In this document: positions 733 through 61,133 of the stretch, piece by piece | Layout of the letters: each line of letters starts with the position of its first letter | Position numbering within the stretch: the stretch's first letter is position 1 | Source of the DNA: Amoebophrya sp. A120 | Taxonomy: Eukaryota; Protista; Dinoflagellata | NCBI GenBank assembly: GCA_905178155.1 | Contig: CAJINV010000004.1 | Span: 8,004,771-8,068,770 of the forward strand | Length of the DNA stretch: 64,000 nt | Direction of reading: 5' to 3' | Made by a program: the position numbers and the translations under genes | The notes under the pieces: generated by a model | Databases searched by the model: none | What the model was told of the DNA's origin: nothing | The model's input: only the letters and a program-made list of their open reading frames with translations

Positions 733-945
733 AATGCGGGTCCCCATGAGAGGCATTTCTAGTCGTGTTTTGGAATTTGTAATGCTGGAAACAGGATAAG
801 CAGATGGATTTTTGATGTATTTGTCCTTACGAAGCTGCACTACACTACGGACTGCAACTTGTCATGCGTGGCGCCCAAAACTTCTAGATTTGTGCTGCTA
901 AGTTCCCAATTTGACGATGGGGTGGGGACAGTTTTACACAGGATA
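733..945 (+). mobile_element. Right part of introner (family E)
   Basis: Interior matches 60500-60718. Ends ggggacagttttacacaggata just before the Walker A exon. Confidence 0.75.
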
Positions 946-3900
946 TTGTGCCCGAGTTTTTCACGGGCATCCGCAAACCCTGCCGTGGGGTTTTGCTGTA
1001 CGGACCGCCGGGGACAGGAAAAACGATGTATCAAATGCAAATATGTCTGGGTCTGGAAAGAATGGGATTTGTGATGCTACTCTTCTATGCTGCAAAACCC
1101 TGCGTTGCATGAGCAGCAAAAGGCGCTTGAAATTTTGCCACTCGAAGCGGGCATTTCTCATGCAGGATAGGCATGAGCAAGCCTTCGCGAAACGTGTGAT
1201 GCTAGAGCATGCATTACAGGCAACGCGGGTCATGTACAACTGTGCATGACAAACTCCTCCAATCTTTTAGACCCAGACATATTTGCACTTGATACGATGC
1301 TGGCGAAGGCGATTGCCTCGACCGCGACGTATCCTGTGCAAAAGTATCGTACTCGTATTGCAGTCATGCATTACAAATCTCCTTCTTAAGGTAAATCTGC
1401 ATCACAAATTTTATTTCTGTTGCTGAGGAAATTTGTAATGCATTTATACGAGTACTACGATACTTCTGCAAAGCATACCTCGCTATGTATTGCAAATATG
1501 TGTGGGTCTGGAAGATTGCCAGATTTGTCATCCTTGTCTGACATGACTCGGGGCTCTGTCATGCGTAAGTGCAAAATGATCGTTTTGTCTGTGATGCAAA
1601 AGCGCAGTGTGCCATGCGGAATACGCTACTTACACATAGCAGCTCAAGAACTTGTCATGCTTGGCCACGTATGTTGACAGTGCGCCCAGTACTATTCCGT
1701 GGTTTGCATCACAAGTTTCCAGACCCAGACATGTTTGCATTTGATAGACGGAGTCCGTCGCGTTCTTCAATTGCAGCTGCGCGACGTGTATCCTGTGCAA
1801 AAGTATCTGATACTCGTATTGCAATCTTGCATTACAAATCTTTTTCTGAAAGATAAATCCGCATTACAAATTTTATTTCTCATGCTCAGGAAATTTGTAT
1901 ATGCATTTATACGAGTACTATAGTTTTGCAGTTCATAACGCTGACGAGCAAGTGGCGCGGCGAGTCGGAGAAGTTGTTGCGAGCTTTGTTGTATCCTGTG
2001 CAAAAGTATCGTACTCGTATGGCAATCATGCATTACAAATCTTTTTTTTAAGGTAAATTCGCATTACAAATTTTACTTCTCACGCTGAGGAAATTTGTAA
2101 TGCATTTATACGAATACGATACTTTTGCAATGCATATGTTCAACATGGCGCGGGCGCGGCATCCGTCCATTTTGTTTTTCGATGAGGTGGATTCGCTACT
2201 GTCCGCACGCGGCTCGCACGCGGAACACGAGGCGTCGAGGCGGTTTAAGTCGGAGTTCCTGATCCACATGGACGGGCTATTGGCCGACGGCAGGGACGAA
2301 AACCGAACTCCGCTCGTGCTCTGCACCATATGGGATTCTCAAACGTTACATCCTCAACTGTTACATGAATTTGTAATGCAAGAATGGCAAAAGTGAAAGG
2401 AGGAAGATTGCGCATTACAGACTTCTTAGAGCGGATTCTGTTGCTATTTAGCGCGTCGAGAAGTTGTCACGAGAAGAAGGCGCAATCGTGTAAAAAGTCA
2501 AAGTGGCAGCGTTTTTGCATGACAAGTCAGGTAACAGTTGAGAATGTACCGCTTGAGAGCCCCATACACAAGTAACGCGCCCTGGGATCTGGATGACGCG
2601 CTGAAAAGGAGGTGCTTACTTACGTACAACTCTTAGTACAGTCAGTAAGTACTTTAAAGACATATATGCAGCTTTTTGTTCTTCATCATCGGATGAGATT
2701 CAGAACTTGTAATGCGTTCCTGCGAACGCGACCGGAAAAATAATCCAGGGTGTCAATAAATCTATGTGACACATAAATCTATGCTTTATCAGGTTAGTAC
2801 CTGACGAAAAATCAGTCTCAGTCTCAGACGCTTGCAGTCTCAGCAACACAAATTTGCTCAGCATGACACGGACAGCCTTTGATGCGTCAGACACAAAGGA
2901 AAACGCCTATCAAAGACGACTTTCTTGCATGTCGAGCATGACAAAAAACTGTCTCAAGGGAGTTGCGCATTACAAGCTGCGGCTGAGACAGTTTTTTCCG
3001 GGGATAGTAGGAGAAGCGGATTTACATCGCGCTGCCGGACGAGAAATTATCCTGTGCAAAAGTATCGCACTCGTATTGCAATCATGCATTACAAATCTTT
3101 TTGTTAAGTCAAGTGCTCATTACAAATTGAATTTCTCATGCTGAGTAAATTTGTAATGCATGACGTCGCCTCGGTAGTGTCGTGGCCTCGGGACGCCACT
3201 ACAAGTTGGCGCACCGAGGCTAGAAGAAGTTTCTTCAGGACGCGCATACAAAATGGCGCACCGAGGCCAAAAATGCCAGTTTTTCGGAGTCGCCGCCTCG
3301 GTGCACCGAGGCGGACGGCCTCGGTACGCCAAATTGTAGGCGGGAATAAAGCAGCAGACGGGCGGAACACAGCAACAGTGCCAAGATTGGTTTTTTTTTT
3401 GGGGTGAGACGGTGAGACACGTGAAACCAATTCGATGCTGTTGCCGTGCATCCGAGGTAGTGCTCGTCGCGCGACGCCGCGAGCAGAAGCTCCCGCGGAA
3501 GGCAGGGGGCGACGCAGGCGCGGGCGTGTGCGAAGCGAAAAAACGCACGCGGGGGGGGGGACCGGGGGCCCATCGGCTAATTCGCGAGGCCACGCGCGCG
3601 GGCCTTGGTGGGCAGAAAAACAAAACCCGTACCCTGGCGCGCGTCCGAGGGCAAGGTAAAAAACGCAGGAGGCGAAGGCGCCGGCGCCACCTGGGAAAGG
3701 CGTGCGATGGGACGTTTTTGCGCGCCGCCTCGGTGCGCCAAAATGTATTGTGAAGGCGCGCCGCTACAATACCAATTTTGTAGGTGGGCAAAAAGACATA
3801 TTTGGGCGGGCTCGGTGCTGCCATACGTTACAAACCGCACCGGGCTCGGTGCTGCTTTTTGGCGGGTTTTCTCAATGAAAAAAGCGCGAAAATTGTAACG

Positions 3901-58800: not shown

Positions 58801-60050
58801 CCACGTTCTTGATGCAGCAGTGTTCTATATGCTATACGGGGATAGCTGAGAAGCGGAGCACGATATATATAAGCGCTCATCAGCGGCAGACCCACCGATG
58901 AACTAGGAATCATTCACGTAAACAGCACAAGCTGACGACCCCATCAAGATTGATCAACATCTTTCTCTACTCTAAGAGCATTTACATTTTTTTCTTCTCG
59001 CTGATGCTACGTACAGGTTAGTGGTGCACACAGAATGAAAATGAAGTGGGCGTACGCTCATGCAGACGGCCCGTAAACAGTCCTTTAGCCCACCATGAGA
59101 TACAACCAGGAAAAATGCACTCGATCCTAAAATCTTGGTCCGCACTTCGCTTCCTTCCAAATGCCAGAGAATTCCAGGATCCTTGCGAGATAAACTGTCA
59201 CGTAGAACAAGACTTGACTCCATCATGTTGTTAAGTACTCCTCCTGCCCGGTCCAGATATAGTGACTCTGACCCAGAGTTCCACTTCTTATTGCAGGCAG
59301 ATACGTACTCCAGACGCGGCTCCTGTAGTGCAGAGCAGCCGCGATGCAGCAAGGATTGCAGCGGAAACTTCTTAGCGGCACAGAAATTGGTGTGATACTA
59401 CTAACGCGACCGCTTGCGCTTTCCAGCTCCTGAACCCAGAAACTGATGCAAATGTGTTCAAGCAGATCCTGAAATCCAAATGCAGAAATTGAAATCCTGT
59501 TCCTGTAGATAACAAACGACCCTGCAGCACTGATACTTCTGCCAGTTCGCCATTGCGAAAGAAACCACGGAGCAAGGGCGAAGAAACTCCGCGTGGTGCT
59601 GCCAGTTTTTTGGGCGGTGACGCGCTATAGCAATACGGCTGCGGCAACTACTTACGCACAAAGACTCCGGAAAAATCCCAGTTCAATATTTTAGCAGACC
59701 GCGGATTTTTGACATTTCCGGTAGCCAATTGCGGCACTACTGTAGTACCCAGTTCCTGCGAAAATTCAAAACCGCGTGCAGAGCAGACTCCAGATCCAGT
59801 CACAATCCAATCTCAACTACACCAGGCCAGTTCAGCTTTCCCAATTTTTTTTTGCGGACAATCCTGTCTATAAAATCTTCACTCTACGTTCACGTAGCAC
59901 ACCAGTTACTACAACGACACTCACCTAGCTTTCCAGTAGTCGAAACGAAACCTGCGTCGCAGAACTCCAGTTTTTCCAGAATCCAGGAACCTGTTTTCCA
60001 GTTTTATTCCAGTCTAGAGCGTTGAATCCAGACACCCAGAAGTCCCGAAA

Positions 60051-61133
60051 ATGGCTTACCGCAAAAACGGCCTGCGCATGGAGGACCTGCACTCCGTGAA
60101 GATGGACGGCTTGTCCGAGTTACGCTGTGTACATCAAAAGTAGCAGTTTACTTTCAGATGCGGTTGTTGTGCGCATGATTTTTGCAATGATGTTGACCAC
60201 CTCTGCATGGCAAATTTTGATTTTTCTTTCTTCGAGCTTCAGCATCACAAACTCAGTTACAGTTAGAATTTGATTTGTCCGTATAATTTGTAATGCAATT
60301 CTGGTAAAGTGCACTGCTTTTGTATTGCATACACCTACGTGAAGGCGGAAGAGGTCGAGAAGGAGTTCTCCAAGTTCGGTACCGTCCAGGACGTGTACAT
60401 TCCGCGCGACTACCGCTCCGGACGCGGAAAGTATTCTGAGTAAAAACGTCTCCACCCCAGAATTGCCATGCGGGTTTGCAAGAATCACAGGAAACCTTGT
60501 AATGCGCATCCCCATGAGAAGCAGTTTCAATCGTGTCATGCAACTTGTGATGCTGTAAACAGGATACCAGGATGGCTTTGTGATGCGGCTGTCCTTGCTA
60601 AAAGGCAAATTACGGCACGGAGAAAAACTTGTCATGCGTGACTCCAAAAAGAACTTCCGGATTTGTGCTGCACAATTCCCAACTTGACTCTAGCGTGGGG
60701 ACGTTTTTGCACAGGATAGAGAGGGCTTCGGGTTCGTCCGCTTCGAGCACAAGGATGAGGCCGAGGACGCGGCCAAGGCGGACATCACCATGGACAACCA
60801 GAAGATCGAGCTCGTCCTCGCCATATCCAGTGCAAAAGTATCGTACTCGTAGTAATTGCATTTATGCATTACAAGTTTCTTTTGCAAGGTAAATCAGCAT
60901 TACAAATTTAATGTGTAATGCTAAGTCAATTTGTAATGCAATTCGTACTAGTACGATACTTTTGCAATGCATACGCCACCCGCGGCAAGCGCAACATGGA
61001 ATGGAAGGACGACCGCCGTGACCGCGGCCGCCGCGACAGCCGCGACCGCCGGGACCGCCGCGGAGGAGACCGCCGCTCCCGCTCCCGCGGAGGAGACCGC
61101 CGGGGTGGCCGCCGCGACTCTCGTCGCCGCTAA
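60051..61133 (+). CDS. SC35/SRSF2-like SR splicing factor (RRM + RD/RS tail), 4 exons
   Basis: SVKMDGLS/..EFSKFGTVQDVYIPRDYRSGRGK/GFGFVRF (RNP1)..IELVLA/TRGKR..RDRRGGDRRSRSR..* after removing three introners. Confidence 0.9.
60121..60331 (+). mobile_element. Degenerate introner
   Basis: TA..ATA ends, caaaagtagcagt / actgcttttg IR, internal gcatcacaa/ttgtaatgc motifs. Confidence 0.7.
60432..60718 (+). mobile_element. Introner, family E
   Basis: tattctgagtaaaaacgtctccac / gtggggacgtttttgcacaggata. Repeat GAAAG/GAGAG. Confidence 0.9.
60824..60973 (+). mobile_element. Introner, family B
   Basis: Family B TIR. Repeat CGCCA. Confidence 0.92.

Follow-up and report, generated by a model that had tools for sequence, protein, structure and literature searches.

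The window analysed here is a 64-kb stretch of DNA from Amoebophrya sp. A120, whose genes are interrupted by short inverted-repeat elements that are removed from the RNA. It contains a katanin p60-like gene, a series of small RING-like paralogues, an SthA-like oxidoreductase with EF hands, a MORN-repeat gene, a cold-shock-domain gene and an SR-type gene. Single-exon Pfam matches (AAA, Pyr_redox, EF-hand, MORN, RRM, CSD) confirm the host genes, and a public protein under the name Amoebophrya sp. A120 matches the katanin exon 2142-2324 with 100% identity. The introners of A120 are described with ends reading TAT, 7 nt and AAA, direct repeats of 3-5 nt, a length of ~240 nt and many families (PMC7789003). 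In the window, the element ends read TAT, then 7 variable bases, then a run of at least three A; a direct repeat (5 bp) lies at the borders, the splicing from RNA is non-GT-AG, and the families are repeated in an A120-type genome. Since the DNA is of A120 type and the end motif is the published one, the system is already known: the elements are the described transposon-derived introns (introners) of this parasitic dinoflagellate, and the link to Amoebophrya made in the initial annotation is supported. The fixed excision rule is the new and testable part.

The hand-curated catalogue of the window comprises 44 elements with inverted ends TAT...ATA and a 5-bp flanking repeat. The first estimate (about 40 elements of 145-500 bp in at least six families of terminal inverted repeats, TIR) stands for the families; the count is higher and the lengths are 145-502 bp, plus one copy of 942 bp. 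A strict scan of the window (TA...TA pairs, ends complementary at ≥15 of 20 positions, flanking repeat ≥4/5) gives 21 pairs vs. 0-1 in each of 20 shuffles. Scan and catalogue thus both uphold the TA...TA termini and the perfect or decayed 5-bp repeat. Among the 43 elements with both ends defined, the repeat is 5/5 in 16, 4/5 in 9, 3/5 in 8, 2/5 in 4 and ≤1/5 in 6 (this last class includes 14363, scored one base off its true ends). Of the 107 occurrences of the internal motif TGT[ACG]ATGC in the window, 95 fall within 40 elements (11.5 kb), across families. The elements have the characters of miniature inverted-repeat transposable elements (MITEs), i.e., short length, TIR, target-site duplication (TSD), high copy number and no coding capacity. 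In X1, a DNA-like run, the summed depth over elements reaches 130,884 vs. ~25 in unique DNA.

The first element, initially placed from 733 on, continues upstream to at least 545, as seen by alignment with a 457-bp family member in locus L031:

right end 945, reaching upstream to at least 545, left end undefined, + strand: E-family element within a katanin intron

A high-copy cassette occupies 545-740 of this E-family element; the summed X1 depth is ~14,000 over 600-1026, and the cassette is also present in L031 (6306-6762).

The elements had been described as sitting inside conserved motifs of intact genes. The hosts are indeed such genes, as judged from Pfam and the katanin homologues, but the placement is not confined to conserved coding motifs: (i) the spliced copy 10697 sits 3' of the stop codon of its transcript; (ii) 12718 is nested within the element 12681; (iii) 53059 is located within a GT-AG intron.

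A scan with A-family ends gave at least 151 loci (624 kb) from a close relative. Among the loci listed, a perfect 5-bp repeat is present in 247/337 elements, and repeat lengths of 2-4 and 6-9 give 0-26. The locus L122 is an orthologue of the SR gene with one more element, and this empty/filled pair displays the 5-bp duplication directly:

60781..60785, + strand: empty target site; the orthologue L122 has an extra element there, with the five bases duplicated

This element is present in one and absent from the other of two orthologues with 98% exon identity, which indicates recent mobility. Both polarities of insertion are found in all six families tested. The MITE anatomy proposed at the outset (TIR, 5-bp TSD) is thus supported by the repeats and by the empty/filled site.

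RNA was mapped on two stretches, 600-13400 and 21150-33000, and the joint counts cover the joints listed there. X10 consists of raw RNA reads; X3 and X6 are assembled contigs that follow exons and whose RNA status is a guess. Katanin has no usable RNA coverage (X3, X9, X10), and the X3 depth is 0 in 23130-24317 and 24714-25901. Among the 21 catalogued non-katanin elements of the two stretches, 18 are spliced from RNA. Seven listed element-skipping joints of X3 fall in 600-13400, and six of them are also seen in X10 (2, 3, 2, 339, 325 and 147 reads):

8144..8461, + strand: intron GT..AT, element 8145-8457; X3 joint 8143>8462, register pinned
8651..8812, + strand: intron, element 8652-8808; X3 joint and 2 X10 reads; 7 equivalent registers
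8891..9340, + strand: intron, element 8892-9336 (last TIR base A>C); X3 and 3 X10 reads; registers 0-2
9391..9657, + strand: intron, element 9392-9653; X3 joint and 2 X10 reads
9868..10313, + strand: intron CT..CC, decayed element 9869-10309; 339 X10 reads from ~90 starts, X3; register pinned
10696..10962, + strand: intron 3' of the stop codon, element 10697-10958; 325 X10 reads, X3 joint
12680..13186, + strand: intron AT..AG, element 12681-13182 with nested 12718-12927; 147 X10 reads from 61 starts, X3; register pinned

The ends of the decayed element 9869-10309 are assigned by alignment with its paralogue 14363-14780. Element 12681 is a paralogue of 8145, and the nested 12718 leaves together with its host.

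The removed length is the element plus 5 nt in 18/18 listed element joints. Register 1 (1/4 register), with the first cut 1 nt ahead of the 5' TA and the second 4 nt beyond the 3' TA, fits all 18; register 0 fits 15 and register 2 fits 12. The three unambiguous joints (8143, 12679, 9867) all place the cuts 1 nt before and 4 nt after the element. These three joints rule out register 0 and represent two independent insertions (8143 and 12679 are paralogues; 9867); registers ≥2 are ruled out by six joints. Even with a flanking repeat reduced to 1/5 (9869, 12681), the cutting is exact. A canonical reading (GT-AG, GC-AG or AT-AC) is found in no equivalent register of any joint (0/18), and the U2-type pair of GT/GC donor and AG acceptor is likewise found at 0/18. 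The elements are thus mostly non-canonical introns, as initially claimed, and across the 18 exact junctions there is no retention-only outcome and no use of a nearby canonical site.

The rule was set from the seven joints above; 11 joints were then predicted in the SthA-like gene, and 11/11 are exact in X3, four also in X6 (X10 and X11 contribute nothing on 21150-33000, which carries no weight either way):

26921..32551, + strand: pyridine nucleotide-disulfide oxidoreductase (SthA-like) with EF hands; 11 elements; Pfam
26994-27282, 27342-27597, 27660-27983, 28759-29010, 29342-29609, 29902-30124, + strand: SthA-like elements 1-6
30224-30440, 30507-30771, 30976-31280, 31474-31769, 32265-32511, + strand: SthA-like elements 7-11

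Joined by the rule, this gene has an open reading frame (ORF) over 877 codons. One X3 joint, 27080>27212, falls inside an element (one contig, 20-letter side); together with the joints 28821-28833>29462, it seems to derive from other family copies.

The katanin gene gives an independent view of the register, by homology:

951..5322, + strand: katanin p60-like gene, 3' part; 12 elements and the GT-AG intron 2612-2792
1029-1294, 1330-1477, 1484-1746, 1789-1937, 1992-2136, 2329-2566, + strand: katanin elements 1-6
2798-3006, 3048-3989, 3994-4222, 4272-4516, 4573-4792, 4856-5140, + strand: katanin elements 7-12
1482..1482, + strand: predicted 1-nt exon between 1330-1477 and 1484-1746; its product agrees with the public model P0001
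2793..2796, + strand: predicted exon of 4 nt (frame and homology), flanked by the GT-AG intron and by element 2798-3006
3046..4226, + strand: two abutting elements, 3048-3989 and 3994-4222 (sequence and homology); predicted net joint 3045>4227

At the elements 1789 and 1992, register 0 would alter residues kept in 46/47 homologues (register 1 vs. 0: 46 vs. 0 and 46 vs. 1, n=47), and register 0 is therefore excluded independently of the RNA. The C-terminal part built by the rule has 263 aa, and its alignment with P0002 has 221 identical residues and 8 gaps. The public A120 katanin model P0001 ends at the GT-AG intron and lacks the ~120 C-terminal residues recovered by the rule, which thus permits the repair of gene models. 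With high confidence, the 1/4 register is considered as the excision rule.

The pair 1330-1746, initially left as ambiguous, fits the rule if position 1482 is a 1-nt exon; this putative exon, deduced from the rule, cannot be told from one excision in another register, which yields the same mRNA. The element 3048-3989 separates intron position +1 of 3994-4222 from its +2, and an ordered two-step removal is therefore predicted. This B-family element holds an insert of ~790 bp with its own internal inverted repeats (3160-3950). Right 3' of the katanin stop, 5287-6800 is a fold-back of ~1.3 kb rich in GAGAGG, followed by a 35-bp repeat of the katanin 3' end (6766-6800). The same GAGAGG-rich cassette is also found in a 1.1-kb TAT...ATA element with a 5-bp repeat (L020 505-1608) and in L065.

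The other elements of the window are the following:

13668-14148, 14363-14780, 18210-18355, + strand: elements in or between small RING-like paralogues (within 13667..22299)
20322-20691, 21337-21631, 22034-22295, + strand: further elements of the RING region (within 13667..22299)
48138..49330, + strand: MORN-repeat gene; element 48812-49073 and three GT-AG introns; frame restored; weak Pfam match
50275..54843, + strand: cold-shock-domain gene; elements 52003-52263 and 53059-53323 (nested in the GT-AG intron 52911-53349)
60051..61133, + strand: SR-type RRM gene; elements 60130-60331, 60432-60718 and 60824-60973; frame restored; weak RRM_1 match

The restoration of the frame by removing the element plus one repeat copy, as first proposed, is seen in the SthA-like ORF, the conserved katanin and the MORN and SR frames. 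For the elements 21337 and 22034 no joint is found among those listed in 21150-33000; an X6 piece spans 21636-22028, i.e., the exon predicted by the rule between them. The RING-like genes are five in tandem (7900-25010), and their element content of 0 to 6 makes a natural gain/loss series. In the highly expressed and fully spliced transcript 7659-11451, an in-frame TAG at ~8835 lies in the RING-like motif, with no alternative letter listed in X3 or X10; it is a nonsense allele or a case of readthrough. X9 covers just 11122-11451, polyadenylated, with 891 reads carrying the template-switch adapter at 11122; this is either a short transcript of its own or the truncated 3' part of one. Two regions have no elements inside: the ORF of 1519 codons at 41281-45840, which has a double-stranded RNA-binding motif at its end (PF00035, E 2e-7), and the tandem arrays at 33170-37550 (82-, ~92- and 30-bp units, and an exact 740-bp duplication).

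The signals read in the RNA were searched in the relative. Ends were located by TIR positions 4-25 only, which gives 427 pairs in the listed loci. The host strand was taken from a codon model on the flanking exons, blind to the ends: 267 pairs are oriented, 253 of them with a repeat ≥3/5. A further 66 copies oriented via a neighbour bring the set to 319, the other 108 pairs (weak repeat or no strand call) being dropped. Neighbouring elements agree in strand call in 185/185 cases. In the 319 copies, the 5' end has 1/0/9 non-consensus bases at TIR positions 1/2/3, compared with 11/5/4 for the 3' end. Intron positions +2T/+3A thus have 1 change vs. 16 at the mirror 3' positions (p=0.0003), an asymmetry predicted beforehand. 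TIR positions 4-25 are symmetric between the ends (180 vs. 180, 246 copies). As a transposase is blind to the host strand and the pattern is independent of base type, +2U/+3A are under selection at the RNA level; there is clearly a two-letter 5' signal under host-strand selection. The intron may begin and end with any letter: each of the 16 first/last pairs is represented, with GT..AG in 9/319 (6 in the mirror reading) and AT..AC in 10/319.

An A at -7 is present in 18/18 spliced introns. Arm pairing is predicted in the same 18/18, with a mean pairing probability of 0.49-1.0. The G-U and A-C mismatches of the arms are equal, and the part played by the stem is accordingly putative. The structure-guided removal first proposed is thus kept in part: each of the 18 introns has a predicted stem, and selection is seen on the two 5' letters instead of an RNA-level wobble signal.

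The elements appear to grade into GT-AG introns. G at +1 is common among the elements of the window, and two of them (2798-3006 and 52003-52263) read GT..AG under the rule. Among the frame-inferred GT-AG introns of the window 7/9 start with GTA, and four GT-AG introns (2612-2792, 48611-48713, 49127-49266, 51812-51906) carry TGT[ACG]ATGC, suggesting decayed introners turned canonical. Decayed repeats drifting to GT/AG are not seen in the 319 copies of the relative. Conversely, 2329, 4573 and 48812 allow no GT-AG register, as already noticed in the initial annotation, and no GC-AG register either; this is read from their sequence, the RNA joints belonging to other elements.

The reading towards which these data lean, with moderate confidence, is that a U2-type spliceosome, its terminal checks relaxed and the inverted-repeat stem serving as a guide, removes the elements. 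The proposed sequence of events is: (i) insertion, in either orientation, duplicates 5 bp of target, as observed; (ii) a DDE transposase of retroviral-integrase/Ginger type would act in trans on the non-autonomous copies, the motif TGT[ACG]ATGC being perhaps its handle; (iii) removal from RNA of the element plus 5 nt in the 1/4 register, as the joints show, leaves exactly one target copy, so that the gene is restored at any insertion site; (iv) the 5' end, where selection is seen, would be read as N|UA, the first two bases of the element standing at +2/+3 as in a GUA donor; (v) the stem would join the ends, the 3' cut being set by the distance from the stem and not by AG; (vi) catalysis would be by the spliceosome. 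The letters dropped from the signal are the terminal ones, and the element supplies the U and A of an ordinary donor at +2/+3. The first and last bases of an intron pair with one another during the second step (bioRxiv 10.1101/2025.08.15.670264), relaxed ends are processed by the U2 spliceosome in Fritillaria, and A120 retains U2, U4, U5, U6 and 83/89 spliceosomal proteins (PMC7789003).

Several points weigh against the spliceosomal reading. A free +1 and a fixed +2 are the opposite of what the spliceosome commonly tolerates. A fixed branch A at -7 was predicted and fails (4/319 changed vs. 9 in the mirror, p=0.27), and two of the exceptions fall in open frames. The G-U excess predicted in the arms is not seen (266 G-U vs. 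274 A-C mismatches). The +2/+3 asymmetry derives from contigs of a relative, without RNA, and its sole 5' exception (L004 1359) sits at a gene-strand switch. As for the joints, the 11 predicted ones exclude registers ≥2 and do not separate register 1 from 0; 11/18 rest on the X3/X6 contigs of guessed RNA status, and raw reads cover six, three of them by just 2-3 reads. Pfam on 108/189 candidate locus ORFs gives no DDE, integrase or transposase. Moreover, U1 is not detected in A120 (PMC7789003).

The same lack of U1 (PMC7789003) agrees with a dedicated endonuclease-ligase, or another new machine, reading the stem and UA in the same 1/4 register, an alternative that is held as possible, at clearly lower probability. 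The predicted arm pairing of all 18 spliced introns suits it, as do the absence of terminal letters, of a fixed branch A and of AG in the 319 copies. In Euglena, a stem-plus-spacer code (N3CDG...CHGN5-6|R) is thought to involve distinct factors and gives circles (PMC12501133, PMC11282704). However, the constraint in Amoebophrya is one-sided, on the donor positions +2/+3 and not on the paired stem; the left arm of 9869 has lost a base, yet the cut keeps T at +2; and the elements seem to grade into GT-AG introns, several with the element motif. If this tentative reading were true, a second RNA cut-and-join activity would read N|UA and the stem and cut 4 nt beyond, i.e., a splicing route matched to one transposase: as 1 + 4 equals the 5-bp duplication, any insertion in either orientation would be a scarless intron.

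It is very unlikely that a cryptic U12-type spliceosome removes the elements. The U12 donor consensus resembles an N-TATCC start and U12 introns tolerate varied ends; under the rule, introns of the B and E families start with NTATCCT. A transposon-derived U12 expansion is reported in Physarum (PMC11282704). Nevertheless, positions +4/+5/+6 have no host-strand constraint (9/8/5 changes 5' vs. 2/4/6 3'), +5 is G in 95/253, +1 is free, so that no conserved +1 to +7 donor is found, AT..AC occurs in just 10/319, and U11, U12, U4atac and U6atac are reported absent in A120 (PMC7789003).

A hairpin between direct repeats is the classic setting of template switching by reverse transcriptase, and some X3 contigs retain the introns (depth 7 vs. 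~1800, 158 vs. 1450, 6.6 vs. 79). The joints are nonetheless most improbable as such artefacts: those lacking a repeat are exact in 339 and 147 reads (~90 and 61 starts), the removal gives the 877-codon ORF and a conserved katanin, and +2/+3 are under host-strand selection. Least probable of all, and hardly to be retained, is an excision at the DNA level like that of ciliate internal eliminated sequences (IESs), which the TA-bounded inverted-repeat elements in genes resemble, since five variable bases are duplicated, not TA, and X1, compared on the stretch 600-13400 with incomplete joint counts, has depth 0 for all seven RNA joints and unbroken pieces at 22-30x over the flanks and the whole element 9869-10309. 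The removal in transcripts rather than in DNA, as first claimed, is thus supported.

A single transposase superfamily, also put forward initially, is plausible from the uniform 5-bp duplication, the shared ends and the internal motif; the transposase itself is not found in the window and 624 kb. In these sequences (listed loci), 10 long pairs of TIR and 5-bp repeat are present, none with a transposase-like ORF. A 6.2-kb candidate in L072 was rejected, as it corresponds to two internal sub-repeats of B-family copies. Viral contigs give a single isolated motif match, in L001, with one ORF there without Pfam match, and no Rfam family is found in the window. An integrase-type DDE transposase of Ginger-like kind would be the lead, on the strength of the listing of A120 family 38 (5-bp TSD, TA/TA termini, integrase-related homology). 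Ginger transposons end with TGT, and the ends here are TAT/ATA. No superfamily with these ends is found in the available parts of the literature searched, including bioRxiv 10.1101/2021.09.26.461848.

The removal of tens of thousands of non-GT-AG introns in Amoebophrya is a question dating from 2021, with borders reported as variable. One register and a two-letter 5' signal lead to testable statements on lariats, key bases and snRNA contacts. Since the removed length equals the duplicated length and no site is required, the mass invasion would be accounted for.

By comparison with known systems, the closest are the A120 introners of Farhat et al. 2021 (PMC7789003), which share the end motif, the short direct repeats and the non-canonical borders. 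There, the repeats are given as 3-5 nt long at varying positions, and the splice sites as "variable" with respect to the hairpin; here, all joints agree with a single register, and the repeat length is 5 bp throughout. The fixed register and the +2/+3 signal are not found in print in the text available, though the figures of Farhat et al. 2021 may show part of it; neither is stated in the available parts of PMC9860276, PMC11282704, PMC12005148, PMC11453091 and PMC13149111, the last without mention of Amoebophrya in these parts. A120 family 38 (Gozashti et al. 2025, PMC12130899) is alike in its "5-bp TSD, TA/TA Termini", its TIR and its integrase-related ORF homology. It differs in being 808 bp long with ORF remnants, and its authors give it as lacking the Ginger termini and TSD; the likeness to the families of the window is one of description. 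For the other A120 families, among 41/58 rows of that source, the TSDs given are 2-6 or absent and the splice-site modes are mixed (PMC12130899). The nonconventional introns of euglenids (Nomura et al. 2025, PMC12501133) share a MITE-like origin, free termini and set stem spacers. They differ in their N3CDG...CHGN5-6|R code and in that pairing is shown to matter; the Amoebophrya elements read N1-TA...N4, with constraint only on the 5' UA and without the euglenid signature. Together with this Euglena code, diplonemid introns (PMC12621601) are the nearest parallels for a nuclease-ligase. The introns of Fritillaria borealis are also MITE-derived, with TIR and TSD, and use a modified U2 spliceosome (PMC11282704, bioRxiv 10.1101/2025.08.15.670264); their preferred ends are AG-AC/AG-AT from a TAC target, while here there is no preference of target or ends and the duplication is 5 bp. 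Finally, in fungal stwintrons the donor of one intron is interrupted by another and removal is ordered, as predicted for 3048/3994; stwintrons are canonical U2 introns, and the case of Amoebophrya is predicted from the sequence.

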